Origin: a virus
Taxonomy: Duplodnaviria > Heunggongvirae > Uroviricota > Caudoviricetes
DNA length: 64,000 nt
Direction: 5' to 3' (one strand)
Virus record (IMG/VR): IMGVR_UViG_2713896899_000007
Location: 7,041 to 71,040 of that record
Shown: in pieces, positions 6,901 to 44,532 of the stretch
Position numbering within the stretch: the first letter of the stretch is position 1
Layout of the letters: every line of letters starts with the position of its first letter
Notes under the pieces: generated by a model
What the model saw: the letters and a program-made list of their open reading frames with translations, nothing else
What the model was told of the DNA's origin: nothing
The model's database searches: none
Translations under genes and position numbers: made by a program

Positions 6901-8582
6901 GGAGTCTGTATGGCGGTCGCCATCGTGGCAAAGGTGCTAACCATCTGGCTGCCAGCGCCAACTCCCCCCATGATCCCTGCTCGCATCAGTTTGAACGCAA
7001 CCATCGCGGCCACGACCTTACCGAGATTAATTACCAGCTCTTGGTTCTTTGCTAACCATTGAGCAAGCTGACGCAACCCATCGATTGCCGTCGTTAACCC
7101 CGAACCTAAAGAATTGGCAAACGAAATCCCTTCGGCGCTATTCATGATTGAAGCCAGTTCTTTCATCCCCTTTGATAGAGAATCCAGATATCCGGCCTGA
7201 CCAACTCGATCAGCAAATAACGTGAATGACGTCTGAAGTTGCGCCAGCGCACCTGTGTAGGTTTGCATCATGTCTTTCGCTGCGTTCTCGTTCTCCGCAC
7301 GCAGACCAACAAACATCAGAGACAACGCCTGCTTTGCCTCAACCGTACCGCTGGCAACGGCTTTAGTTAGTTCCCCCATAGTGATGCCTGCGGCGTCTGC
7401 CATTGCCTGCATCGCGTTAGGAACGGCTTCACCTAATTGCTGACGTAGCTCTTCCATTGACACGACGCCCTTACCGGACATCTGCTGAACGGCCACAGCC
7501 GCACGTTTCAACAGCTCACTATCACCACCAAAACGAGCAACGGAGTCCACCAGCGCCTTCAGAGAACCATCGGTTGGATCTAAGCCAGCAGAACGAAACT
7601 TCACGAAGGAGTCTGTTAACGCCTGCATCGCGAACGGCGCATTTTGAGCCATGTCTACGATGTACTTCATATCATCAGCGGCAGCCTGGCCAGGGTTGGA
7701 CTTCTCCTTATTCAACCCTCGAAGCATCACCCGCATACGTTCCATTTCGGCCGCAGCTTCAACAATAGGCTTCTGCCACCCAAACATGATGTCAGTAACC
7801 GTTCTGGCTGCATCTCCGATCTCGCCAAGCAGGAAAATGTTGCCACGAAGGCCAGAGAACATACCTCCTTCGTTATTTTTACCGCTGTGGCCAGAAGCGC
7901 CGCTACGCTGCCTGCTACCGCTACCACCATCGCCACTTCCAGATGTACGAACGCGTACCGGCTTGCTAATCAGTTGCTGACGTCCGATAACTTCGTCCAT
8001 CTGCTCACGAACCTTTTTCAGTCCCTCGGCAGCCTGACTCGTTGTGACACCCCAATTACTGAGTCGCTTCGTCGTGGTATTAAGGCGCGTATTCATGCCA
8101 CTCACGGACGCAGAGGCTTCTTTGACCTCCGTACCAAAGCGGCTTGCGCTTTTGCTTGCATAGGTCGCCCAATCAGAGAAATCATTTAGCTCTGATTGCA
8201 CTTTACGTAATGACGCGGTGAGTTTATCTACTGAAGAAGTTGTCGTATCGACGCGCTCAATCAGGGCTTTAAGACCAGAATTGAGGCTGGTGATGTTGCC
8301 ACGCATTTTACGCGTAGCATCTGAAGCAAGCTCAAAACCGGCAGCTACATCCTGTAGTTTATCTGCCGTAGAATCGAGCTTGCTTTCCAGAACGCCAATG
8401 ATACGGGCGACCGAACCCAAAGAGCGTTCAAAGGTTTGGATTTTTTGAGCAGGCTTTGTTACCTGCTCACCAAATCGAGTAAGCAGTTTCCCCGCACGAT
8501 CGATTGACGCTGTAAACTGTTTGTCTTCCAGCGACAGGATAAACTCTACGTTTTGTGACATTCCCTTGTCATCCTCTGCCAA
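3996..8582 (-). CDS. Tail tape measure protein
   Basis: 1528-aa ORF, long coiled-coil-rich centre, Gly/Ala/Ser-rich hydrophobic segments, directly upstream of the tail tip genes. Confidence 0.85.
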   Translation of the reverse strand: MAEDDKGMSQNVEFILSLEDKQFTASIDRAGKLLTRFGEQVTKPAQKIQTFERSLGSVARIIGVLESKLDSTADKLQDVAAGFELASDATRKMRGNITSLNSGLKALIERVDTTTSSVDKLTASLRKVQSELNDFSDWATYASKSASRFGTEVKEASASVSGMNTRLNTTTKRLSNWGVTTSQAAEGLKKVREQMDEVIGRQQLISKPVRVRTSGSGDGGSGSRQRSGASGHSGKNNEGGMFSGLRGNIFLLGEIGDAARTVTDIMFGWQKPIVEAAAEMERMRVMLRGLNKEKSNPGQAAADDMKYIVDMAQNAPFAMQALTDSFVKFRSAGLDPTDGSLKALVDSVARFGGDSELLKRAAVAVQQMSGKGVVSMEELRQQLGEAVPNAMQAMADAAGITMGELTKAVASGTVEAKQALSLMFVGLRAENENAAKDMMQTYTGALAQLQTSFTLFADRVGQAGYLDSLSKGMKELASIMNSAEGISFANSLGSGLTTAIDGLRQLAQWLAKNQELVINLGKVVAAMVAFKLMRAGIMGGVGAGSQMVSTFATMATAIQTPFNLGATAVTRFNRAARMGLAPIPSLIFAIRGAITGLKGAFAGLTAFIAANPIGAAFTVATVAVAGLITYMTMLRSETSKVVDEIRKIPEAMTAAKRAQMAEYKARLEQQITQKEQELKSGEKVVYGPGMAGTTVKINQDERKRIENELNDLRKKRDKTTGAIERGDIAVAKRLAKDAAESQIEKIREENRDFAATFAKARQEALEKIQKINDDDSLSDDEKNKLLAPLRETVNKSYLEPAQKLVDSLSSRKNAVEGQIATLNDQLEKAKKEGNTEQIKKLQGSIRGYQENLEVVAQELTQAEFERDNAAKTGKGVMSNQGTVLGLGTTDKAAQKALAQYMRNQMDSATYQRTLPDGTPMMDFEGKPIIGPKQLKTQLNLQKASSASSLEKMSDEERAAAIAALTKAREQDAAAAEKAAQRSANASQRAAKKEQAAQQKLAAGYQKALDKADQLMGQMGESSKATVSFDQSLRDTTKSLTDLANAVPNEFITQEMIDKAKKRLEDLKNATPEYREMFNRRNVEQMISTWAPEADSIISAGYTPSREEKVADFEDTYNRNLKALIELRDKASDPKVVALYTKKINQLIAAGNTALIKETGTATQKLALEYENLAEQIESTWTDLFSGLTDVLTDFVINGKMSFSSLSQSILKDITNMVVKSQITLPLMNMLGMGTTAAGSSQSGNLLTGVASAVANQGVRMGNTVNGDKSVGEATKETSSSVTGLGQTTQQTTSAIGTATNAIGSWVSGLFDSTEAKDAETKAVKDSIFSMQNLSSVTGALSAAFAMLGANASGSGNKWLNFGATVASGLVSVWAGGGFDSVTSSSAKTATSSVADGTKGIPAIPKFANGGIFGKDGVIPLRAYQKGGIANSPQLALFGEGSMNEAYVPLPDGRTIPVTLSTDGMSGGGNVLSPVSIEINVHSDGSTTESGDTESIWNNAAKRVKAVVLETIAQEKRPGGSLNPNTQRN

Positions 8583-22443: not shown

Positions 22444-24003
22444 ATGACTGTTCGGATTGTATCTAACGCAGTTAATGCGCTTATTTCTGGCGCAGATGAC
22501 AAGGTAAAGCAACTGGTGCAGCAAATGTTGAGCTACGAAGTCGAGACTGGCGACTGGAAGGGCACAAGCACGATGTTCAACTGGAGTAAAAACTCGTTCC
22601 CTGCTGGCTTTGCCAAGCCTGTAGCGGCGAACTTGAACAAGGCGGGCATCAAATGTGTTCATATCCGCAAAGACAAAGCCCCGGCGCTTGGTAAACCAAA
22701 TCCGGCGGTTAACCCATTCCCATACAATCCTGATTATGCGTATCAGGATCAGACTGTGGAAACACTGGTTCGAGAGGGAATGATGATTGCGCAGATCGCT
22801 ACTGGTGGCGGGAAATCTAACGTTGCCTGCAAAGCAGCTGCACGTATCGGTCGAATGACATTATTTTTAACAACCCGCTCTGTTCTGATGTTTCAAATGG
22901 CCGAAAACTTCCAGAGATCCATCGACTACCGCGCCGAAAATGGCGAACCGTGGTTAAAAGACCAAAAGGTTGGAGTCATTGGCTCGGGTGAGTTCCAGGT
23001 ATCACGACATATCAACGTCGCTACAGTTCAAACTCTTGCAAGTTTCCTCGAAGAACCACCACGCGATGCAACACCAGATAAGAAAAGCTACCACCTCAAA
23101 CGTCGGGAGTTGGTGAAACGCTTCCTTTCAAGTGTCTCTCTTCTTATTCTGGAAGAGGCGCATGAGTCTTCAGGCTCAAATTTCTATGACATCGCCAGAT
23201 TATGTGTGAACGCAGACTATCGTCTGGCGCTTACAGCCACGCCGTTCATGAAGGATTCGACGGAAGCCAACATGCGCCTGATGGCGGTGGCCGGGCGAAT
23301 TGAAATTAAAGTCACAGAAAAGTACCTGATTGATCGAGGCATTCTGGCAAAGCCGTACTTCCTTTATCATAAAGTTGCCTACAAACCAGACGAGGCCAGA
23401 ATCAAGGCAGAACTTGCCAACAAACACCTCAATTTTAGAGTAGGTATGAGTACTGCCTACCAAAAGGCTTATCAGTTGGGGATCGTGTATAATTTGGGAC
23501 GTAACGAGGCCATTGTTCGCGAAGCATTGCTCTATAAGCAACATTCTCTCAATTGTATGACTCTGGTTCGCCTTAAACGCCACGGGCAAATCCTGATGGA
23601 AATGATGAAAGAGTCCGGCCTTAGAGTTGACTTCATCTATGGGGAATCTAACCAGGCGACAAGGCAAGCAAAGCTGAACAGTTTAGCGTCTGGAGAAATA
23701 GATGTTTTAATAGGCTCGACTATTCTGGATGTCGGTGTTGATGTGCCAAGCGTTGGTGCGGTCATTCTTGCTGGTGGTGGGAAAGCAGAAGTTGAAATGA
23801 GGCAGCGTGTCGGTCGTGGCTTACGAGCCAAGAAGAATCAGGCAAACGTGTGTTTTATCACTGATTTCATTGACACTAGCAACAAATACCTGTTGTCTCA
23901 CTCTTATGAGCGAAAACACATCATCGACACCACACCTGGCTTTGCAGAAGGTGTATTGCCTATTGATGGCGCATTCGATTTTGGAGTTCTGAAACGAGAT
24001 TAG
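22444..24003 (+). CDS. Superfamily II DNA/RNA helicase
   Basis: Motif I ATGGGKS, motif II ILEEAHE, motif III TATP, motif VI QRVGRGLR. Confidence 0.8.
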   Translation: MTVRIVSNAVNALISGADDKVKQLVQQMLSYEVETGDWKGTSTMFNWSKNSFPAGFAKPVAANLNKAGIKCVHIRKDKAPALGKPNPAVNPFPYNPDYAYQDQTVETLVREGMMIAQIATGGGKSNVACKAAARIGRMTLFLTTRSVLMFQMAENFQRSIDYRAENGEPWLKDQKVGVIGSGEFQVSRHINVATVQTLASFLEEPPRDATPDKKSYHLKRRELVKRFLSSVSLLILEEAHESSGSNFYDIARLCVNADYRLALTATPFMKDSTEANMRLMAVAGRIEIKVTEKYLIDRGILAKPYFLYHKVAYKPDEARIKAELANKHLNFRVGMSTAYQKAYQLGIVYNLGRNEAIVREALLYKQHSLNCMTLVRLKRHGQILMEMMKESGLRVDFIYGESNQATRQAKLNSLASGEIDVLIGSTILDVGVDVPSVGAVILAGGGKAEVEMRQRVGRGLRAKKNQANVCFITDFIDTSNKYLLSHSYERKHIIDTTPGFAEGVLPIDGAFDFGVLKRD

Positions 24004-24005
24004 TT

Positions 24006-24284
24006 ATGAGCGAAAAGAAAACAACTTATTGCCAAGTGGCATTGTCTGATAAGGCCAATGAAAAACTTGGAAAATTTCAAATAAAACTCAAAGAGAAAAA
24101 AATCAAGATGTCTAAGGCTGAAGTTATCAATGCCATTCTGGAGACGATGACTATGGCTGAATTTGACAAAGTCACATCTGCCGTTGGGGTTTCCGCTAAG
24201 ACGCGTGAGAAAATCATGCGCATCTATGAAAACTCCAATATGACAAAAAAAGATCTAGAGGAAATACTGAGCAGGTTGCCGTAA
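24006..24284 (+). CDS. Hypothetical small protein (possible RHH-type DNA binder)
   Basis: 92 aa, starts 3 bp after helicase stop; Lys-rich. Confidence 0.4.
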   Translation: MSEKKTTYCQVALSDKANEKLGKFQIKLKEKKIKMSKAEVINAILETMTMAEFDKVTSAVGVSAKTREKIMRIYENSNMTKKDLEEILSRLP

Positions 24285-24316
24285 CATTTCATATTTACCC
24301 CCTATCAACTAATTCT

Positions 24317-24351
24317 ATGATGTGCTCACTTGTTAGAAAGGAGCACATCAT
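24317..24351 (+). promoter_or_regulatory. 11-bp perfect inverted repeat occluding RBS and start codon
   Basis: ATGATGTGCTC (24317-24327) pairs with GAGCACATCAT (24341-24351); AAGGAG RBS and the ATG at 24350 lie in loop and stem. Confidence 0.4.
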
Positions 24352-24916
24352 GAGTTGGTTAAAAGAATTATCATTTGTTGACACCACTGGCGCTAAGAAA
24401 AATCATTCTTTCTGGAAAGTCAGCGATCCTTCTGATTTTCTTGTTGGTGCTAATGCTGCTTTTGAATTGCTTAACTTTTATCAACGTTATCCTGAAATGA
24501 AACACAGTCCACTCCTGTACAGAATAACAAACGATATGAATAGGTCTGGTTTATTATCAAGTGAGTCAGCGAAAGGCTTTTTTAGCAAAATTACGCCACA
24601 CATATCATTCGATGCAGCAAACGAAATTGATTGTCTATCCACGAAACCTCAAGAACAATTATCTGTACCACCTGAGAAAAAACAAAGACGAATTGCCAGC
24701 ATTGAAAATATATCGAAAGAGCTTCGCACAACAACGTTGAGGCTGCTGAACTTTCTTACGCTACTTAATTGGATAGATGATCAAACATTGATTCCATCAA
24801 CCGATGCGTTGGATAACAGAGTACTTAGGCTGAACAAAAAATCGCAATTTGGTTTTGTGTTCACCAAAAAAGGTGAAGATTTAATCAAAAGAAAATATAG
24901 ATTATTGAATGATTAA
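24350..24916 (+). CDS. Hypothetical protein (AT-rich island)
   Basis: RBS AAGGAG 8 bp upstream of ATG 24350; track start 24317 lies inside an 11-bp inverted repeat. Confidence 0.45.
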   Translation: MSWLKELSFVDTTGAKKNHSFWKVSDPSDFLVGANAAFELLNFYQRYPEMKHSPLLYRITNDMNRSGLLSSESAKGFFSKITPHISFDAANEIDCLSTKPQEQLSVPPEKKQRRIASIENISKELRTTTLRLLNFLTLLNWIDDQTLIPSTDALDNRVLRLNKKSQFGFVFTKKGEDLIKRKYRLLND

Positions 24917-24923
24917 TAGTCTA

Positions 24924-24970
24924 CATGCAGGTGTATGAGAGCACCTGCATGTGATATTCATCACATTTTT
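24924..24970 (+). terminator. Hairpin(s) plus T-run after gene 24350..24916
   Basis: 10-bp stem CATGCAGGTG/CACCTGCATG followed by short stem GTGAT/ATCAC and T6. Confidence 0.4.
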
Positions 24971-25061
24971 TGAAGTACACACCTCCGGCTGAAAAAATTT
25001 CTTGATTGGCAGAACGATATTTGTAGGCTTTTCAATTGATAACTAAGGTCGGATACTGTAG

Positions 25062-25550
25062 ATGAGTATTTCCATAAACAAAATAATTAACTCTTTACGA
25101 CATAAAATATCACATGGAAAAGATGTTCTTTTTAAAGACAAATATTATCTATTCAACCTAGAGTTGTACAAATGCACAAAATTTTATATCACTCGGAACC
25201 GTAAATATTCAGCTTCAATCACAAAAGACATGAAGAAAATCTCTTCAGAAGAGTACTTCATATCACATATTTATATCTACCCATTTAAATTAGAACCATT
25301 AAATATAATTCTTCCAACAATAAAAGGGGTTGAACTTGAAGGTTATACTTTAAGCTCTAACTTTAATGATATGGGTGTACAAAAACCAGGGACAAGGTCA
25401 TACTACGCCTACAAAGTAAAATGCAATAACTACAACGCACTTAACATGCTAATCAGCAAACTTGAAACGGAGATAGTCGAAGGAAATCTAAATGATGATC
25501 ATGAAAAATTAGAACAAATAGAAAAACTTAGAAAGTGTGATGTTAAATAA
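25062..25550 (+). CDS. Hypothetical protein (AT-rich island)
   Basis: 162-aa ORF, very low GC, Lys/Asn/Ile-rich. Confidence 0.4.
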   Translation: MSISINKIINSLRHKISHGKDVLFKDKYYLFNLELYKCTKFYITRNRKYSASITKDMKKISSEEYFISHIYIYPFKLEPLNIILPTIKGVELEGYTLSSNFNDMGVQKPGTRSYYAYKVKCNNYNALNMLISKLETEIVEGNLNDDHEKLEQIEKLRKCDVK

Positions 25551-26165
25551 TTGGATTATCATGATATGAAAATGAAAATTTCGTTACTCCTTGCTTGTAT
25601 ATGCCTCCCGGCGTTTTCCGCCAACGCATTATCAGATTTCGTCTCTGACATGCAAAAAACGTACAGCATGTTTACCTCCGAAGACGTAGTAGAATACAAA
25701 TCACGAGGTCTGAATCAGCCAGTTTGGTTCAGATTCTCAGACAACGCAGAAGAAACAATACTTAATGGAGGAAAAGAAAGATTACGGTTGCAAATTAACG
25801 GGACCGCTGTACCAGAAAACGTTAATGTAAACTCTGACGAAGCCATGAAGCCATCTGGAATTGTTTTAGAAGTTCAAGACGGCACACTTTACTGTGATGA
25901 AATGGCTACAACAGGTTGCCAAGTAAACATTAGGGTTGGCAATGAAGAGCCTATCGTTACTTACGCCAAGGCTGAAGGGAATACAAGTGGAAAGGTATTG
26001 TTTATCGATGAAAATATCTCAAAACGTATCGTTCGTGACATACAGAAAACAGCTAACTCTAAATCCGTCGATAAAAAAATCTATGTTGAGGTTCCCTTCT
26101 TTGTCGTTGGTAACAAAGAATTTAAATTTGGGTTGCTGAAAACACCTCTAAGAGTATCAGAATGA
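25551..26165 (+). CDS. Secreted/periplasmic protein of unknown function
   Basis: Signal-peptide-like MKMKISLLLACICLPAFSANA (probable start 25566); two Cys in mature part. Confidence 0.5.
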   Translation: MDYHDMKMKISLLLACICLPAFSANALSDFVSDMQKTYSMFTSEDVVEYKSRGLNQPVWFRFSDNAEETILNGGKERLRLQINGTAVPENVNVNSDEAMKPSGIVLEVQDGTLYCDEMATTGCQVNIRVGNEEPIVTYAKAEGNTSGKVLFIDENISKRIVRDIQKTANSKSVDKKIYVEVPFFVVGNKEFKFGLLKTPLRVSE

Positions 26166-26686
26166 GAACATTGGACATCACCTACGGCATACCGGCTGAA
26201 GTCTGGCCGCGAGACTACGAACATGCTGAAAACATACTTATGTTCTGGCGGAAGAACAACATTCCTGTAAGAGTCACGCTTGAAGACGGTCAGGTGTTTT
26301 GCATGTACGTTCAGGGGACAATGCCTTCCCGCAATAAGCTAGATTTATGCCCGCTTCCATATGATAAAGAAAATCGTATAAGACTCCCACTTGAGCGCAT
26401 TAGCACAATTGAATCAGGTGTAATCGATGGCATTGCTCGCGAGTTCAAAGGTAGGCTAACAATACATCCAGACTATGTTGACAATCAGCCATCACGCCGT
26501 GACTTTTTTGCGATATGTCGCAAGGCTTATCAAAACGACCAATCTATAAGGGTCTACATGGCAGACGGTCGTGAAATTGAAGGGGTGTCAAGAGGCGTTG
26601 ATGCTTGCCAGGTCACTCTTAAGTTAGAAGACGGCAGAAAAATACTTGTTTTCTTCGATTGGGTTGAACGAATCCTTCCATTTTAA
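26162..26686 (+). CDS. Hypothetical protein with internal duplicated segment
   Basis: Repeated VRVTLEDGQVFCMYVQG / IRVYMADGREIEG / VTLKLEDGRKILVFF units; ATGA overlap with upstream gene. Confidence 0.45.
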   Translation: MRTLDITYGIPAEVWPRDYEHAENILMFWRKNNIPVRVTLEDGQVFCMYVQGTMPSRNKLDLCPLPYDKENRIRLPLERISTIESGVIDGIAREFKGRLTIHPDYVDNQPSRRDFFAICRKAYQNDQSIRVYMADGREIEGVSRGVDACQVTLKLEDGRKILVFFDWVERILPF

Positions 26687-26878
26687 ATCTATAAGGGTAA
26701 TAACCGGCTAAGCCCGGTTATTATTTTACATGCCATTCATTTAAAACTCTTTCAATGCCACTCTGTATAAATATATAAGGTTAAAGGCCCGAATTGATTA
26801 TTTATTTAGGGAACACCTTCGACGATCTCGCTTTTATTTCTAGGACTTTCACCCCTGCAAAAAATTTAAAAAAAACAC

Positions 26879-26906
26879 TTGCAATCTTTTTTCACGTATC
26901 GATAAT
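26879..26906 (+). promoter_or_regulatory. Sigma70-like promoter with A-tract UP-like element for AT-rich island genes
   Basis: -35 TTGCAA (26879-26884), 16-bp spacer, -10 GATAAT (26901-26906); A-rich tract 26859-26876. Confidence 0.5.
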
Positions 26907-26981
26907 TGAACTCGTCGAAAGCGAGCTGGCTAACGACAGTAAAAAATAAATTCATTTTAATTTTTCGTAAGGATGTCCATC

Positions 26982-27632
26982 ATGGCTAACATTATCATTT
27001 CTAAAAAATCCATCATTGAAGCTGCTTCCATTGTATCCGATGAACTGCGCGAAAAAGCAGATCTGGCAACTCAAACATATAACGAACATTATAAAAATGG
27101 TACGCACACTAAAGCAGACAAAGCAAATATGCAAGCTGCGACCACTAAACTTGCTTACTTCATCAACAACGTCGTAAACGCAGTAGAAGACGAAAAATTA
27201 TGCTCTGTTTTCTACTATGCGATTAAAGCAAGCAAACAAGCGCCAGAAGTATTTTTCCGTGATGCTATGACTAATAGTTATTCACTGGAAAAACTGGTTT
27301 ATCTGGTTAAATCCATTAAAGCTGGTAAATGCGTTTATTCCGTCGCTGATATGTCAGGATCTCGTGTATTCGCTTTAATCGATATGATTAACGACGAGAT
27401 CGACACGTTCACCAATGGCGCTGTTTTCGATTTAATGAATGAAGCTAAAAAAGCGTGCGAAATTAAATTGGACGCTGGCTATACTCAAGCCAACCAGTTG
27501 ATCAATCTTTGCGAACGTCTCGGACTTGTTGAAAAAGTCAAAGGAGCTGGGAGCGCCAAAGCTGGTACGCAGCAATATCGCTTCATTAAAAATGATTTCT
27601 ACAATTATTTAGCTGATGCTTTTAAAGCGTAA
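26982..27632 (+). CDS. Hypothetical protein (AT-rich island)
   Basis: RBS AAGGA 9 bp upstream of ATG 26982; preceded by sigma70-like promoter at 26879-26906. Confidence 0.5.
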   Translation: MANIIISKKSIIEAASIVSDELREKADLATQTYNEHYKNGTHTKADKANMQAATTKLAYFINNVVNAVEDEKLCSVFYYAIKASKQAPEVFFRDAMTNSYSLEKLVYLVKSIKAGKCVYSVADMSGSRVFALIDMINDEIDTFTNGAVFDLMNEAKKACEIKLDAGYTQANQLINLCERLGLVEKVKGAGSAKAGTQQYRFIKNDFYNYLADAFKA

Positions 27633-27644
27633 TTAATGAAATCA

Positions 27645-27663
27645 AGCGCCCACTATGGGCGCT
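27645..27663 (+). terminator. Hairpin AGCGCCCACTATGGGCGCT (internal attenuator-like)
   Basis: Same stem sequence as terminator at 28141; weak T-run. Confidence 0.35.
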
Positions 27664-27681
27664 TTAAAGGAGCTTTCAAAA

Positions 27682-27885
27682 ATGGTCAGCTATGACAAGA
27701 TCCGCGCGGAATATCGCGCAAAGTATCGCGCTTATAAACTGGAATTAATCGACGATTTGATCGCGCAACGCGACCAATTAAATTTTACGTTTTCTGATTT
27801 GCTTAACAGTAAACGAGATTGTAAGCGTAAGCGTGAATATTTACGTTTAAGCGCATTAATCGGAAAACTTCAAAATTCTATTTAA
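27682..27885 (+). CDS. Hypothetical small basic protein
   Basis: RBS AAGGAG at 27669-27674 then ATG 27682; track start 27655 lies inside a terminator hairpin. Confidence 0.4.
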   Translation: MVSYDKIRAEYRAKYRAYKLELIDDLIAQRDQLNFTFSDLLNSKRDCKRKREYLRLSALIGKLQNSI

Positions 27886-27905
27886 TTTTTTTAAGGAGCT
27901 TAATC

Positions 27906-28133
27906 ATGGTTATTTTCATCTCTGGCGTAAATATCAATAATCATACTCTTGTTTATGATATTGCTGGTTTAGCTGGATATGCTCTAAGTTCTGAAGTGGT
28001 TGATGAAACAACGTTTAAAATAAACATCAATGACGTAGAACATAGAGCGCGCGTAGGAATCAATGAAGCTGATGTTACTTTAATGCTTCAAGAATTTTTA
28101 AACGCTGGCTTTAATATTCACTTAGAAAAATAA
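27906..28133 (+). CDS. Hypothetical small protein
   Basis: RBS AAGGAG at 27890-27895, ATG 27906; followed by strong terminator. Confidence 0.4.
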   Translation: MVIFISGVNINNHTLVYDIAGLAGYALSSEVVDETTFKININDVEHRARVGINEADVTLMLQEFLNAGFNIHLEK

Positions 28134-28140
28134 AAACAAT

Positions 28141-28165
28141 AGCGCCCACTATGGGCGCTTTTTTC
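28141..28165 (+). terminator. Rho-independent terminator closing the AT-rich island
   Basis: AGCGCCCACTATGGGCGCT followed by TTTTT. Confidence 0.7.
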
Positions 28166-28187
28166 GTTTACAATACACCCACCATAA

Positions 28188-28210
28188 CGCGCCAATAATG
28201 GCGCTTTTTT
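28188..28210 (+). terminator. Second stacked rho-independent terminator
   Basis: GCGCCAATAATGGCGC followed by TTTTTT. Confidence 0.65.
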
Positions 28211-28623
28211 ATTGTCTTTAACTCACTCCAACAACATAAAAATAAGCGCCAAAATAACGCCATAGACGCGCTTTTATATCCTTGTCAGTACATACCCATT
28301 ACTTAACACATTAACGCGCTTAAAATGCGTTATATTGCGCTATAACGTATGGCTAATCATTAATTTTTATTCTTGCTATGTGATCCGCGTTTAATTGTCG
28401 GCGCGGATCGGCATTTTGTTTTGTTCCGTATCCGCTCGCGTATTATGTGCGCGTGATTTTTCACATAATCACACCACTTAATCACGTATGTGATTATGCT
28501 ACGAAAGAAATCTGGATGTCTCAGGCGACGAAAGTCATCATAATTTTCCCCGCTCACCTGTCCGACAACCGCTGGTTGGATTCCACCAGCTTCCCGATGT
28601 TTTTTCTACATAAAGGCGAATGC

Positions 28624-28745
28624 AGCCGTTTCCCGAAAAAATCCTGGCCGTTTCCCGTCGGCTCATGAATGCGTTCCTTGCCGTTTCTGAAAATTTCCCT
28701 GCGGCAGCTGGTGGCTATAGAGAAAGGGCCGTTTCTGGCCCTCTT
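28624..28745. repeat. Array of GCCGTTTCCC/GCCGTTTCT repeats (4 copies) plus CCCTGCGGC-TATAGAGAAA box
   Basis: GCAGCCGTTTCCCGAAAAAATCC, GGCCGTTTCCCGTCGG, TGCCGTTTCTGAAAAT, GGGCCGTTTCTGGCCC. Confidence 0.6.
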
Positions 28746-31568: not shown

Positions 31569-31580
31569 AAAGCAATCCTT

Positions 31581-31614
31581 AAACAACATGTTTTCTTATT
31601 GGTGTTATTATCGC
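31581..31614 (-). promoter_or_regulatory. Early promoter/leader motif instance
   Basis: minus-strand GCGATAATAACACCAATAAGAAAACATGTTGTTT then AAGGA RBS. Confidence 0.45.
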
Positions 31615-31926
31615 AATAACGCACAGGCGAAAAAGGATTTTATTCCGGTGAATGTGGTTTTGGCAGTGAGTTTTCAGGTTCAGTACCGAGTACACTTTTT
31701 ACATTATTCTGATTTAGTGGCCGAAGATGGCTGGTGGGCAGAATAATCCTCTCCCCGAAAACCTACTGAAATCGATTGTGACCCGCTGGCTGTCTGGCAC
31801 AATTACGCTGTAGCTGGGCATTCAGAGGGAATCCAGCGGTAAGTTCGCCTGCACGTGAGCGCCTCTCTTCTTACCGCACATTACAGGTGGGTAGCCGCAA
31901 CTCTCCCTCACGCTATACCGGTACGC

Positions 31927-32060
31927 CACCGTTCCTGAACCGGCATCGAGCCTTTTCCCGAAATCCACACAGGCAACTCTACCGTTTCCCTGAAAATCCC
32001 CAGCCGTTCCCCGAAGGCAACCCAGCCGTTTCTGTAGCGGGATGCAGCCTTTCCCTGTAT
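31927..32060. repeat. Second array of CCGTTTCCC-type repeats (6 copies)
   Basis: ACCGTTCCTGAA, GCCTTTTCCCGAAATCC, ACCGTTTCCCTGAAAATCC, AGCCGTTCCCCGAAGG, AGCCGTTTCTG, AGCCTTTCCCTG. Confidence 0.6.
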
Positions 32061-32169
32061 GGACCGAAGGCTGACCGTAGGGGTGTTACGGGGGATAAAA
32101 TCAGGAGTTGAATAAATACGAAAAAGGAGGCGACACCCCTACTTCCCTCTCCACTTATACATACCAGGC

Positions 32170-32950
32170 TTCTTCGCTATACATGTTGTGTTTTCTTCGT
32201 GTTTTATCTGTCTCAACCTCTCTATAGGCGTTAATGCTCACTCCTACCAGAACGTTCTATACGGCGACTATTTCTGTTGGTGGATTAGGTGTGTTGTTTT
32301 CTCTGTCGGTGTATGTGGTTTCGTTCGTTTTGCGGTGGTTCTTCTATGGGGTGTTCTCGTCGTTTTGGTGATTGTTCTTCTCCGTATATGGAGTAATGGC
32401 AGGTGGGCGATTGCTTTCGTTATTGTGTTTGAGTTGTTTGTCTGGAGTGTGTGAAAGGCTTTTGTAGTTATTCGTGTATTGGGTAATGGCGTTTCCCGTG
32501 ATTGTTATGTTTCGTGTCTTTTGGGATTGAGAGAAACCTTGCGGTTACAGGCTTCGTTGGGGTTTCAGTGATTCTGGTGTTTCTTCGCTGTTTGGGGAAT
32601 GGCGTGTCGTGGGTATCGCGCGTGTGAATGTTTTCGGATTGCCTGTGAAAGTTAGGTTGGTTATCCGGTAGCCTGGGAAGAAGAGGTGGGTCTTTTCGGT
32701 AGCCTGCCATAAAGAGGTTGGTTGTTTTTGGGAATGGCATGTGTGTTATTTAGTTGTTTTGTTATGCCTGAAAATAAGTTGTTTATATGGTTGTGTAACG
32801 CAACGGGAGCGATTTTGAGCGTGTGTTTTTGTTGGTAGTGTGTTGAGTCGTCTGTGGTGAAAATTGGACGCTGTGGAGCTGTCTGCTGCGTAGGATTACG
32901 GGTATAAGAAGTGATGTGTGAAAACGTCAATTTTTTAGACCAAATCGGGA
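32170..32950. other. ORF-poor, strongly G+T-skewed repeat-rich region (candidate origin, centromere-like site or noncoding RNA locus)
   Basis: Top strand about 80-85 percent G+T in spot counts; at least 10 same-orientation GTTGTTTT(C) half-sites; four GGnAATGGC repeats at about 100-bp spacing (about 32395, 32485, 32598, 32730); only low-complexity ORFs. Confidence 0.5.
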
Positions 32951-33136
32951 GAAAGCGTTGATGTTTCGTTGATCTGTTATTTAGTTGTTTTCTTATTGGT
33001 ATAAACAACTGTAACCTATTGATATTTAAGGATGTGATTGCAGGCATGGAAGGGGAGTAGTGGCGATCAACGGATTCTTATAGAAAAGAATCAAATTGTG
33101 ACCGCCATTATCAACGGTTTGAATATGTTTGCAGAT

Positions 33137-33445
33137 TTACCAGTTCCAGCACTCAAGCCCTTCAACGACCGGCGCACCACAATCAAAATGTACAGAGTCA
33201 AAGCCTACATCAAGTACTTTCTGAATGTTAGCAATCGCGCCTTCGGATATACCATATCGACGCAAGTCGTCTTTCCAGACATCATCCTGTAACCCGGCGT
33301 GGACAATACAACCGCCATCAATTTGTGAAACCCAATCCAGCTCATTGCTTGCGATCATGAATCGGCGAGCATCTTCCTCTGATGTATGAGATGAACTGAT
33401 CAATGCCACCTGGTAGGCTTGGGTAATGTTCAACATTTCAACCAC
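33137..33445 (-). CDS. Hypothetical early protein
   Basis: 102-aa ORF; upstream both motif variants and a GATAAT hexamer (33448-33510). Confidence 0.4.
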   Translation of the reverse strand: MVEMLNITQAYQVALISSSHTSEEDARRFMIASNELDWVSQIDGGCIVHAGLQDDVWKDDLRRYGISEGAIANIQKVLDVGFDSVHFDCGAPVVEGLECWNW

Positions 33446-36658: not shown

Positions 36659-37759
36659 ATGAGCGAGTCCAAATCGCCGGATGCCCTGAGAGCAATGGTA
36701 GCCGGTACGCTGGCTAATTTTCAGCACCCAACCCTGAAACACAACCTGACTACGCTTAAAGCGTTACACCATGTTGCGTTGATGGATGACACACTGCATG
36801 TCGAACTAATCATGCCTTTCGTGTGGAATAAGCCTTTTGAAGACCTGAAAGAGCAATGTAGTGGTGATCTGCTCCGTATCACTGGCGCAAAGGCTATTGA
36901 CTGGAAGCTGTCGTACAACATTGCCACGCTTAAGCGCGTCAAAAACCAACCAGGCATTAATGGTGTTAAGAATATTATCGCCGTAAGCTCAGGCAAGGGC
37001 GGTGTAGGCAAATCGTCCACAGCAGTAAACTTGGCACTGGCGTTGGCTGCTGAAGGTGCGAAAGTTGGTATTTTGGATGCCGATATCTACGGGCCATCAA
37101 TACCAACCATGCTGGGCGCGGAAAACCAACGTCCAACCTCACCGGACGGTACTCACATGGCACCTATCATGTCTCATGGCCTGGCAACCAATTCAATTGG
37201 CTATCTGGTCACCGACGACAATGCAATGGTGTGGCGTGGACCGATGGCCAGCAAGGCGCTGATGCAGATGTTGCAGGAAACACTGTGGCCTGATCTGGAC
37301 TATCTCGTTCTCGATATGCCGCCGGGCACTGGTGATATTCAGTTGACGCTGGCGCAGAACATTCCTGTAACTGGTGCGGTTGTGGTAACTACGCCGCAAG
37401 ACATCGCGCTGATCGATGCGAAGAAAGGCATTGTGATGTTCGAAAAAGTCGAAGTGCCAGTACTGGGTATCGTTGAAAACATGAGTGTGCATATTTGCAG
37501 TAACTGCGGTCATCACGAGCCAATTTTTGGCACCGGTGGCGCACAGAAACTGGCCGAGAAATACAACACGCAGTTGTTAGGCCAAATGCCACTTCATATC
37601 TCTCTTCGTGAAGATCTGGATAACGGAACACCAACCGTTATTAGTCGTCCAGATAGTGAATTTACGGCTATTTATCGTGACCTCGCAGATCGCGTTGCTG
37701 CCCAAATGTATTGGCAAGGTGAAGTAATACCTGGCGAAATCGCATTCCGCGCAGTGTGA
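36659..37759 (+). CDS. apbC: Fe-S cluster carrier ATPase Mrp/ApbC
   Basis: 366 aa, SGKGGVGKS P-loop, CxxC motif; near-identical to E. coli Mrp; divergent from metG as in Escherichia chromosomes. Confidence 0.95.
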   Translation: MSESKSPDALRAMVAGTLANFQHPTLKHNLTTLKALHHVALMDDTLHVELIMPFVWNKPFEDLKEQCSGDLLRITGAKAIDWKLSYNIATLKRVKNQPGINGVKNIIAVSSGKGGVGKSSTAVNLALALAAEGAKVGILDADIYGPSIPTMLGAENQRPTSPDGTHMAPIMSHGLATNSIGYLVTDDNAMVWRGPMASKALMQMLQETLWPDLDYLVLDMPPGTGDIQLTLAQNIPVTGAVVVTTPQDIALIDAKKGIVMFEKVEVPVLGIVENMSVHICSNCGHHEPIFGTGGAQKLAEKYNTQLLGQMPLHISLREDLDNGTPTVISRPDSEFTAIYRDLADRVAAQMYWQGEVIPGEIAFRAV

Positions 37760-37764
37760 TAAAA

Positions 37765-37796: not shown

Positions 37797-38186
37797 CTAC
37801 ATCACAGGACAATCATCAAACTCGCCACTTCTTGCGTCGTTGATAATGTGAGTGATCACACCAAACACGGCATTGCTGCCCGTGCATCCATCGTCATCCT
37901 TTGGCAATGCTTCCTTCTTACCAGTTCTTAAATCCTCCAGATGCTGACGTGGATACTTCCGGTATCTTTTTACGCGATATTCCCCATCCAGAGCGCATAC
38001 AAGCAGAGAACCATCAACCGGGGTAAGTGAGGAATCGACCACCAGCAATGCGCCCTGCAATATTCCCTCACGATGATGGCTGTCAGCCGCTCTCATGAAG
38101 TAGGTCGCTGAAGGATGTCTAATTATCTGCTGATCAAGAGAAATACGGCTCTCAGCATAATCCGCCGCAGGAGAAGGGAAGCCCAT
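37797..38186 (-). CDS. UmuD'-like S24 peptidase (begins at the position equivalent to the UmuD Cys24-Gly25 cleavage site)
   Basis: MGFPSPAADY... aligns with UmuD from Gly25; Ser (AADS) and Lys (RVKR) of the catalytic dyad retained; in-frame stop 5 codons upstream of ATG; LexA box 20 bp upstream. Confidence 0.75.
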   Translation of the reverse strand: MGFPSPAADYAESRISLDQQIIRHPSATYFMRAADSHHREGILQGALLVVDSSLTPVDGSLLVCALDGEYRVKRYRKYPRQHLEDLRTGKKEALPKDDDGCTGSNAVFGVITHIINDARSGEFDDCPVM

Positions 38187-38202
38187 AGCGTTTTGCCCTC
38201 AA

Positions 38203-43828: not shown

Positions 43829-44532
43829 CAGCGCACCTCACCATCTTTATGGCTGGAGTTAACTTCCGCCATTAAATGTCTGACGTAATCGACAAGAGAG
43901 CCACCTGGTGGAATCTGGCATTCCTCAACTAACTGGAAGTAGATATCCGCTGCATTACGTGTATTGCTACCCGCGCATATTCTTTCTTCCCGAAGTGCAT
44001 GAAGCTCGTTGACCAAACGGTCACACTCTCCGTTACGCTGATCCACAACGGCCTCAAGCTCTGCGACGCGTTCACCTGGCGTCTTACCTTCTTTGCGTTG
44101 GATGGTAACGACGAAATCGCCAATTGCAGGGACGTTGTAATCCAGCTCAAGGTAGTTTTTGGCACCGCTGCGGACGAACTCACCCGCGAACATGGTGGCG
44201 AACATCGCAGAGGCCACTTCGCCGTTGAAAAGTGACTCCAGATCTAACGGAGTCCCGGCAGCAATAGCCTCTTTTGCTGTATCCATTGCATCCATGAACC
44301 GATCAAACTCACTAGCGCGCTTTTCCAGGTCTTTCCATTGCTCGCTCCAACGTTTGGCAACGAAGTCTATGAATGTTTTCGCGGATTCATCAAAATTCCC
44401 CTCAAACTTAACGATGCCTTTATCAATAATGATCTGGCCTACCGCATCCTCTGCATAACCTTTCAATGTAAACTTGAAAGGAAAATCAGAATGGCCTGTG
44501 ACGTTAAAATGCTCTAACTGGAGGTCGTTCAT
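43828..44532 (-). CDS. Hypothetical protein
   Basis: 234-aa ORF. Confidence 0.4.
   Translation of the reverse strand: MNDLQLEHFNVTGHSDFPFKFTLKGYAEDAVGQIIIDKGIVKFEGNFDESAKTFIDFVAKRWSEQWKDLEKRASEFDRFMDAMDTAKEAIAAGTPLDLESLFNGEVASAMFATMFAGEFVRSGAKNYLELDYNVPAIGDFVVTIQRKEGKTPGERVAELEAVVDQRNGECDRLVNELHALREERICAGSNTRNAADIYFQLVEECQIPPGGSLVDYVRHLMAEVNSSHKDGEVR

Follow-up and report, generated by a model that had tools for sequence, protein, structure and literature searches.

We analysed a 64,000-nucleotide stretch of DNA from a virus of the Caudoviricetes (positions 7,041 to 71,040 of IMG/VR record IMGVR_UViG_2713896899_000007; the whole stretch is called the window here). Attention was centred on an AT-rich island at 24006–28280, whose eight plus-strand open reading frames (ORFs) are referred to as O1 to O8. 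We read the island as a composite regulatory and accessory block of phage-plasmids of the SSU5/pHCM2/pMT1 type: a conserved frame around a variable slot, with a left half made in the prophage, a nearly silent right half, and between them O5, a protein of the FljA family. For this overall reading our confidence is a little better than even; it blends the anatomy and evolution of the block with the claims that O5 is a repressor and that its target is something other than flagellin. Of the anatomical and evolutionary description taken by itself we are highly confident. The role of O5 as a translational repressor is probable, and for a conserved target other than flagellin the odds are about even. 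The anatomy, conservation, composition and predicted folds come from this analysis, and expression comes from the RNA sequencing (RNA-seq) of others; from these we infer the RNA binding and the target of O5, the DNA binding of O6 and an envelope role for the slot proteins.

The island is 100% identical to part of the Escherichia coli strain 9 plasmid p009_B (NZ_CP048306.1, 110 kb). The wider region is ~95% identical to Escherichia phages CMS-2020a, Cyrano, and PhiR41_1, and 79% to Salmonella phage SSU5. Because of the identity to p009_B, Cyrano, PhiR41_1, and SSU5, the window is part of an SSU5/pHCM2/pMT1-type phage-plasmid. When relatives were compared in a tblastn matrix, with loci that included Cyrano, PhiR41_1, SSU5, pHCM2, pMT1 and elements from Klebsiella, Kluyvera and Buttiauxella, the same order was found in 12 of 12: helicase, O1, slot, O5, O6, O7 and/or O8, and a gene for a protein of 160 amino acids (aa). 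An earlier reading of the window from its letters only (hereafter the sequence-only reading) had looked to the presence or absence of the block among related phages; the block was present in all that were examined. DNA of O5–O8 matched 819 plasmids in PLSDB (Klebsiella 345, Escherichia 226, Enterobacter 92, Yersinia 62, Salmonella 49), with 75–78% identity in other genera. Among 5426 complete E. coli genomes it was found in 238, in all of them on plasmids and in none on the chromosome. A distant clade of Klebsiella phage-plasmids (helicase 67%, FljA-like protein 29% and O6 53% identical) carries a minimal module, helicase–O1–FljA-like–O6–O7-like, without slot genes.

The variable part of the block is O2–O4 (~24350–26165), the content of which differs among close relatives. 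O3 and O4 occurred together in 35 of the 5426 E. coli genomes (35 of the 238 that carry O5–O8 DNA), and O4 alone in others. Slot content was confined to phage-plasmids of ~105–120 kb. The 22 slot proteins that were compared comprised at least five unrelated exported or lipoprotein families and two cytoplasmic families, and each slot variant has at least one exported protein or lipoprotein. Sequence and profile searches with the slot proteins gave no match to any family of known function. Unrelated genes at a fixed position between conserved flanks, as expected of an accessory hotspot, were seen for the O2–O4 interval only. There was no integrase, transposase or bordering repeat at the borders of the block. 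A PADLOC-DB 2.0 scan of the eight proteins returned no defence-system family at E-values up to 0.1, an NCBIfam scan of the same proteins gave nothing useful, and an Rfam scan of the whole window gave no match. In two of the loci an extra signal-peptide protein of 98–99 aa is encoded between O5 and O6 (L011, 6523–6822; L016, 2815–3111); the block of some relatives thus has another, minor insertion site within it.

The slot is like phage morons and hotspots (lambda bor and lom; the LF82 prophage morons, PMC9928086) in having variable content at a fixed site and atypical composition, and, in Cyrano, prophage expression of a slot gene other than O3 or O4. O1 of Cyrano (CYRAN_117) is itself listed as a moron in that study, and the Cyrano slot lipoprotein is strongly expressed. 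The block differs from morons in that only O2–O4 behave so; O1, O5, and O6–O8 are always present, O1 and O5 as exchangeable alleles. Among the exported proteins and lipoproteins by which prophages block superinfection are Llp of T5 and Cor of phi80 and N15. The slot proteins are like these by category only (small Sec-exported proteins or lipoproteins of a temperate phage, lysogen-expressed in Cyrano), and no sequence or profile similarity to them was found.

The guanine plus cytosine (GC) content of 24006–28280 was 0.373, compared with 0.471 for the rest of the window. The island is the lowest-GC stretch of 4275 bp in the 64 kb, the next lowest non-overlapping stretch having 0.432. The dip described in the sequence-only reading is thus real, and only the backbone value given there, ~50%, had to be lowered to about 47%. 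In windows of 300 nucleotides (nt), the minimum (0.29–0.32) lay at 24850–25600. By gene, GC ranged from 0.29 (O3) to 0.45 (O5), with 0.36 for O2 and 0.40 for O4, against a backbone mean of 0.477 (standard deviation 0.024, n = 47). In every relative (12 loci) the block was 0.04–0.08 below its flanks. In the pMT1, SSU5, and Klebsiella elements, O5 and the slot lipoprotein had backbone-like values (0.47–0.54), and O7/O8 had 0.36–0.44; O6 had 0.39–0.40 in all lineages. The O5–O6 spacer had 0.31 in pMT1 and SSU5, and in the distant Klebsiella clade O6 had 0.39 and the O7-like gene 0.35, with 0.525 outside the block. All lineages examined share the low GC of the O6 operon and its promoter region, which is thus an old family trait and not the mark of a recent import. 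The dip therefore has two sources: an old, maintained AT-rich O6 operon and the lineage-specific AT-rich slot genes O2–O4.

Expression was examined in Cyrano, a 95–99% identical relative with different slot content. In a re-analysis of LF82 RNA-seq, CYRAN_117, which is 100% identical to O1, was among the prophage genes well above background (PMC9928086). S1 Table of that study lists 50 genes, in fragments per kilobase per million (fpkm), for LB overnight (BLB), bacteria-only (B1 and B6) and macrophage samples at 1 h (MB1) and 6 h (MB6). In the order BLB/B1/B6/MB1/MB6, the values are 39/177/224/319/151 for the helicase; 104/509/950/476/407 for O1, which is in the top 4 of the 50 genes in all conditions; 3/12/48/46/53 for O2, which is 9- to 42-fold under O1; 23/255/575/641/418 for the slot lipoprotein, a gene other than O3 or O4; and 13/145/120/267/255 for the FljA-like gene, ranking 5th–11th of the 50 (PMC9928086). 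For O6 they are 1/2/4/8/43 (25th–48th of 50), and for the O8-like gene 0/3/6/16/19 (PMC9928086). Transcripts of the left half are thus made by the Cyrano plasmid prophage, and the O6 operon is almost silent. The left half was much higher in all four non-LB samples (B1, B6, MB1, MB6) than in stationary LB. From O5 to O6 the RNA fell by ~6-fold (MB6) to 70-fold (B1). The low O6 RNA is consistent with efficient termination after O5 together with an O6 promoter that is repressed or silenced in the prophage. Near-silence behind a conserved promoter makes it probable that, in the plasmid state, this promoter is under repression or silencing.

The sequence-only reading had found no recognisable motif in any of the products. 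This did not hold for O5, which matched PF03614 (Repressor of phase-1 flagellin) with an E-value of 5.4e-81 and 270.9 bits (cut-off 24); its residues 5–171 cover profile positions 1–170 of 170. In an alignment of 27 sequences, which took in Salmonella FljA and two further clades, O5 kept the family-invariant residues P35, P110, D114, F116, D166, W167, V168 and I171. Authentic Salmonella FljA was obtained by a representative search and cluster look-up. O5 is 34% identical to it over the full length (E-value 8e-33), and the two fall into separate clusters at 50% identity. The model of O5 consists of two alpha+5-beta units, each an N-terminal alpha-helix followed by a bent five-stranded beta-sheet, that is, an Sm/Hfq-like fold. 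The internal duplication proposed for O5 from its sequence is therefore present in the modelled fold, and it is clear only there; by sequence it is weak (hhalign of the two halves, E-value 0.04). Hfq and the Sm/LSm proteins have a single domain and form hexamers, whereas the O5 model has two Sm-like domains in one chain, and O5 has no significant sequence similarity to Hfq. A PDB sequence search with O5 gave nothing significant, and the FljA family has no solved structure.

FljA proteins prevent the translation of fliC mRNA, and the fljA(z66) plasmid turns motile E. coli non-motile (PMC2652032). O5 is comparable to FljA of Salmonella fljBA, and of fljB(z66)-fljA on the linear plasmid pBSSB1, in Pfam family, size (174 vs 179 aa), invariant residues and predicted two-domain layout. 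Because of these features it would be expected to act post-transcriptionally, through an mRNA leader, and by this analogy O5 is probably an RNA-binding translational repressor, sequence-specific on its mRNA. It differs from FljA in its limited identity, in having no linked flagellin gene or Hin-type invertible promoter, in its fixed phage-plasmid site between the variable slot and O6, and in being kept in hosts without flagella. No flagellin or invertase gene was found in the window or in positions 43985–110182 of the p009_B record. The upstream neighbour of O5 is the predicted exported protein O4, not a flagellin. Public records carry O5 as a 'transcriptional regulator' or as a 'repressor of phase-1 flagellin'.

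A FljA-family profile search of 1.84 billion representative proteins gave 28 clusters. The full-length ones are few, namely those of the phage-plasmid clade and of Salmonella FljA, one singleton, and a divergent clade whose proteins have 164–166 aa. For one member of the divergent clade, P0203, the genetic context was examined, and this gene lies on Klebsiella phage-plasmids. When genome contigs were searched with the FljA alignment as a profile, five loci were found, all phage-plasmid-like; chromosomal fljA was not reached by this search. Most of the few clusters sit at the fixed position described here, and the O5 orthologue is made in the prophage and goes up in macrophages and cell-culture medium. 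For these reasons one may speculate, though we think it improbable, that FljA is primarily a phage-plasmid family of tandem-Hfq-fold, allele-specific translational repressors, from which Salmonella FljA would be a domesticated offshoot, comparable to Hin and the phage invertases.

O5 is followed by a terminator, and its hairpin is essentially invariant in eight phage-plasmids of different genera. The sigma-70-type promoter with A-tracts claimed at 26879–26906 was confirmed as a promoter-like site, TTGCAA and GATAAT being separated by 16 nt behind an A-tract. It matches the consensus at 9 of 12 positions; a scan found 18 such sites in total, against 16.3 in shuffled sequence. Across those eight phage-plasmids there is no variation in the −10 element, in the A-tract or in the TTG of the −35 element. 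A palindrome over the −10 element, TATCGATAAT, was considered as the operator of a regulon. It was not enriched in the window, and there was therefore no sign of an operator regulon. O6 itself is the most conserved gene of the block, with 84–87% identity across genera and 53% in the distant clade, and its family is confined to the SSU5-type phage-plasmid group. Its AlphaFold2 model had a predicted local distance difference test score of 83, and Foldseek matches in the PDB, although weak (E-values 0.03–0.2), were all winged-helix DNA binders. O6 is thus probably a winged-helix DNA-binding protein, as judged from the model. PDB sequence and profile searches with O6 and O8 gave nothing significant.

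The two strong terminators said to end the block were supported by scan, fold and conservation. Both are kept across genera, with changes mainly in the loop of the second hairpin, and, like the terminator after O5, each consists of a stable GC-containing hairpin followed directly by a T-run. AGCGCCCACTATGGGCGCTTT is a 21-nt exact direct repeat, at 27645–27665 and 28141–28161, that brackets O7 and O8, and a related copy lies at 28189–28204. The copy between O6 and O7 would terminate at most partially, since only three T follow the stem. Hairpins of this type may be cassette-exchange junctions as well as terminators, because O7 and O8 occur separately or together among relatives.

In comparisons that included Klebsiella and pMT1, the ratio of nonsynonymous to synonymous substitution rates (dN/dS) was 0.11 for O5, 0.03–0.08 for O1 and 0.01–0.10 for O6, and 0.01–0.14 for block genes overall. 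O1, O5, and O6 are thus under purifying selection. Between p009_B and plasmid CT01, dS was 0.04 for the helicase and 0.06 for O6, compared with 0.94 for O1 and 1.3 for O5. O1 and O5, although always present, are thus exchanged as divergent alleles. From the helicase stop codon to the O6 start (24006–26981) the sequence is mosaic when compared with loci L001, L003, and L016, and the sub-blocks O1–O2, slot, and O5 with the O6 leader are reassorted among Cyrano, PhiR41_1, and p009_B.

The block may therefore be pictured as two halves. The left half (helicase, O1, O2, O3–O4, O5) would be transcribed during the plasmid-prophage state; the recombination slot between O1 and O5 is where genes are swapped, and O5 closes this unit. 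O5 would bind the 5′ leader of a specific mRNA and stop its translation, as FljA does, the target being a phage-plasmid transcript or a host transcript common to all Enterobacterales. The right half consists of a terminator, a sigma-70-type promoter-like site with its A-tract, the three genes O6–O8 and a double terminator. Its low GC is common to all lineages, and with hardly any RNA in the prophage it behaves like a repressed (lytic or conditional) operon, in which O6 would bind DNA.

A different possibility is that O5 is a working FljA, made by the prophage, that binds the host fliC leader and shuts off flagellin, so that lysogenic conversion would cut motility and flagellin display. The benefits could be protection from flagellotropic phages, less stimulation of TLR5 and NLRC4, and energy saving; the slot proteins would also be at the cell surface. 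The full-length match to PF03614 with all family-invariant residues agrees with this, as does the known action of FljA on fliC, including the loss of E. coli motility caused by the fljA(z66) linear plasmid (PMC2652032). Compared with LB, the Cyrano orthologue is, moreover, ~9- to 20-fold up in cell-culture medium and macrophages, where hiding flagellin could pay. Against this, the 34% identity of O5 to Salmonella FljA is far from the ~67% shared by functional FljA variants (PMC2652032), and neither a partner flagellin gene nor an invertase is on the element (window and the p009_B part examined). LF82, the natural host of Cyrano, is an H1 strain in which flagella affect adhesion and invasion; it is flagellated despite carrying the same allele (O5 99% identical). 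The dS of 1.3 for O5 within E. coli, where the helicase has 0.04, would be odd for a regulator of one conserved host leader. Klebsiella and Yersinia pestis are classically non-flagellated or non-motile. O5 is nevertheless intact and under purifying selection in hundreds of Klebsiella plasmids (345), in the second, divergent Klebsiella clade, and in Y. pestis pMT1. On balance we consider a working FljA unlikely. The conservation of O5 in Klebsiella, its fixed place beside O6 and the flagella of LF82 are the reasons for supposing that its target is not flagellin.

The fixed place beside O6 also raises the possibility of a local switch, in which O5 of the prophage binds the O6 mRNA leader and leaves O6–O8 untranslated and unstable, relief of which would aid the change from plasmid to lytic growth. 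O6 always follows O5, also in the minimal module found in the distant clade. In Cyrano lysogens the O5 orthologue is expressed but there is almost no O6 RNA, although the O6 promoter is conserved and consensus-like. Among phage-plasmids with O6 proteins at least 95% identical, the 72-nt O6 leader was 96–100% identical when O5 was at least 96% identical, and 61–79% when O5 was 66–79%; the promoter segment between O5 and the leader stayed at 84–93% in the O5-divergent pairs. Plain linkage explains this co-variation equally well, as one tract from O5 to the O6 start codon in which the promoter is more constrained. No recombinant separating O5 from the leader was sought beyond 17 loci, and two further E. 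coli plasmids (annotated O5 WP_000208379.1) turned out to be of CT01 type, which the sample already included. It is rare for translational repression to deplete a transcript almost wholly, a transcriptional repressor or H-NS-type silencing of the AT-rich promoter is a simpler cause of the silence, and no conserved RNA structure was seen in the O6 leader. We therefore hold such a switch to be rather doubtful. Least probable, in our view, is that the whole 4.3-kb block is a recently acquired foreign cassette for anti-defence, host interaction or superinfection exclusion, as the sequence-only reading had it. The GC dip is sharp and real, promoter and terminators are present, and O2–O4 vary among close relatives and include an exported protein, the Cyrano slot lipoprotein being strong in lysogens. 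Yet five of the eight genes are a syntenic core across at least eight genera, the low GC of O6–O8 is common to all lineages, and neither mobility genes and flanking repeats nor any PADLOC match was found. The unit with its own promoter and terminators, O6–O8, is the conserved silent part and not the variable one. Conserved core genes, which that reading had named as telling against a cassette, are O1, O5, O6 and O7/O8; O2–O4 are not of this kind, and the cassette idea fits this slot only.

Several points weigh against our preferred reading, a composite block whose O5 acts on a target other than flagellin. The sole characterised members of the FljA family act on flagellin, which may thus be a target of O5 when the host is E. 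coli or Salmonella. Comparison of the E. coli K-12 fliC leader with the window gave only chance-level 10- to 12-mers, and no candidate target RNA for O5 was found. Since phage-plasmids may switch hosts, purifying selection on Klebsiella plasmids is no strict proof of function there. The expression data come from Cyrano and not from p009_B. Literature searches found no published study of the FljA-like gene of SSU5, pHCM2 or pMT1.

The features of the block are collected in Table 1. The public annotation of p009_B also calls eight coding sequences, in agreement with the eight genes counted in the sequence-only reading, and uses shorter starts for O2, O3, O4, O6 and O7.

Table 1. Features of the block and of the helicase gene at its start, with positions in the window.
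Feature	Position	Strand	Family or property
DEAD/ResIII superfamily-2 helicase	22444–24003	+	Pfam ResIII, DEAD, Helicase_C
O1, 92 aa, basic (pI, isoelectric point, 9.5)	24006–24284	+	phrog_1466
Hairpin in O1–O2 spacer, enclosing O2 Shine-Dalgarno and ATG	24311–24356	+	dG (folding free energy) −22.9 kcal/mol
O2, 188 aa, accessory gene	24350–24916 (ORF start possible at 24317)	+	phrog_13473
12-bp hairpin after O2, left edge of variable slot	24919–24955	+	dG −23.3 kcal/mol, z −5.3
O3, 162 aa, slot gene, lowest GC of block (0.29)	25062–25550	+	phrog_25050
O4, 197 aa, predicted Sec-exported (periplasmic) slot protein	25572–26165	+	phrog_18942
O5, 174 aa, FljA family, two tandem Sm/Hfq-like domains in model	26162–26686	+	PF03614
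Intrinsic terminator after O5, core stem TAATAACCGG/CCGGTTATTA then TTTT	26694–26727	+	dG −15.5 kcal/mol, z −3.6
Sigma-70-type promoter-like site of O6 operon	26861–26906	+	A-tract, TTGCAA 26879–26884, 16-nt spacer, GATAAT 26901–26906
O6, 216 aa, helical N-terminal domain and small winged-helix-like C-terminal domain in model	26982–27632	+	phrog_1513
Hairpin AGCGCCCACTATGGGCGCTTT between O6 and O7	27645–27665	+	Exact copy of first terminal terminator
O7, 67 aa, basic (pI 9.7), some relatives only	27682–27885 (ORF start possible at 27655)	+	phrog_6145
O8, 75 aa, acidic (pI 4.7), GC 0.33	27906–28133	+	phrog_1585
Two stacked intrinsic terminators closing plus-strand block	28141–28165, 28189–28210	+	Terminator scan and fold

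O1 begins 2 nt past the helicase stop codon, so that the island does start right after the helicase as had been noted. It is present in every relative as divergent alleles, with 52–58% identity in SSU5, pMT1, pHCM2, and Klebsiella and 34% in the distant clade, and it had no Pfam or PDB match. The idea that O1 is a ribbon-helix-helix protein was dropped, as Pfam scans of six orthologues gave no support. The hairpin in the O1–O2 spacer had a z-score of −5.9, none of 200 shuffles folding as stably. Because it spans the O2 start, and O2 RNA in Cyrano is 9- to 42-fold below O1, it suggests attenuation or translational control between the two genes. O2 was 98% identical in Cyrano and PhiR41_1 and 36–42% in S. 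Anatum and K. pneumoniae DD521 plasmids, and was absent from SSU5, pMT1, and pHCM2 in the homologue comparison. The hairpin after O2 is not a canonical terminator, since its T-run sits 13 nt downstream. The initial 114 nt 3′ of O2 are kept in many E. coli phage-plasmids, and the sequences are divergent thereafter.

The public annotation starts O3 at 25230, giving 106 aa. O3 has distant kin in slot proteins of 191 and 199 aa from PhiR41_1 and the K. pneumoniae DD521 plasmid (26–33% over 73–80 aa). O4 is the product that had been described as secreted, and its signal peptide is of the typical Sec kind: MKISLLLACICLPAFSANA, ending FSANA, with the cleavage site before LS, as read from the sequence and kept in homologues. 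The stop codon of O4 overlaps the start of O5 (ATGA). The O4 family (15 clusters) is confined to contigs of ~100–113 kb. Of the small proteins said to be basic, O1 and O7 are so; O8 is acidic. O7 was 90–97% identical where present and 44% in the distant clade. The 'metal ion transporter' label of phrog_6145 is implausible for O7, because this is a 67-aa soluble protein. O8 either replaces O7 in relatives or accompanies it, with 81–83% identity in pMT1 and pHCM2 and 42–46% in Cyrano and PhiR41_1. The N-terminus of O8 (IAGVNI..H..V..IAG..G) resembles that of ribosomal protein uS13; the profile match against the PDB had an E-value of 0.13, which is not significant, and may be due to chance.

The plus-strand block opens not with O1 but with the helicase, which is transcribed divergently from two ParB-like genes and is 90–93% identical across genera. 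The island had been taken for the only plus-strand block; the apbC gene (~36660–37760) is one other plus-strand gene, outside the block. On the minus strand, to the left lie tail, head and terminase genes, an ABC-type ATPase and the two ParB-like genes, and to the right replication and nucleotide-metabolism genes. Beyond ~36 kb, the gene coordinates of NZ_CP048306.1 are offset from the window ORFs by 6 and then by 16 nt. Identity to p009_B is thus complete for the island but not for the whole window.

Four other features of the window were observed. A full-length methionine-tRNA ligase gene (metG) and the apbC iron-sulfur carrier gene are carried on this phage-plasmid (~34470–37770). Next to them, at ~37800–38190, is a gene for an S24 LexA-like peptidase, the orthologue of which, CYRAN_98, has the top expression among the 50 tabulated Cyrano genes in every condition (log2 11.3–12.3 in macrophages). 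The ~1.6 kb at 31570–33142 are without an annotated gene and have extreme strand skew (GC skew +0.31 and AT skew −0.35 for 32001–33000, the plus strand being G/T-rich). They contain many degenerate direct repeats of 14–31 nt with no regular tandem array, and may be a replication or packaging-related region. The motif GCCGTTTCY has five copies in the window, four of them within 28625–28736 on the plus strand with spacings of 22, 33 and 48 nt. The expectation is ~0.9 copies per 64 kb, and five copies were reached in 0 of 100 shuffles. The motif is kept across genera in the ~600-nt non-coding stretch between the terminators and the minus-strand gene for the 160-aa protein, and its copies may be protein-binding sites.

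The block was already in public records, and as an accessory and regulatory region of a phage it is of an ordinary kind, with one uncharacterised regulator. The analysis shows it to be a module common to the whole family, one half of which is expressed in the prophage and the other silent, with a plausible post-transcriptional regulator of the FljA family and a slot for exported proteins. Phage-plasmids of the SSU5/pHCM2/pMT1 type are common in clinical Enterobacterales and include those of Salmonella Typhi (pHCM2) and Y. pestis (pMT1). If O5 represses flagellin in E. coli or Salmonella, carriage of such an element would alter how the host moves, expresses its H antigen and is recognised by innate immunity. 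Control of phage-plasmid genes, in contrast, would make O5 a prophage switch component of a new type. The LF82/Cyrano system allows a direct test of either outcome.

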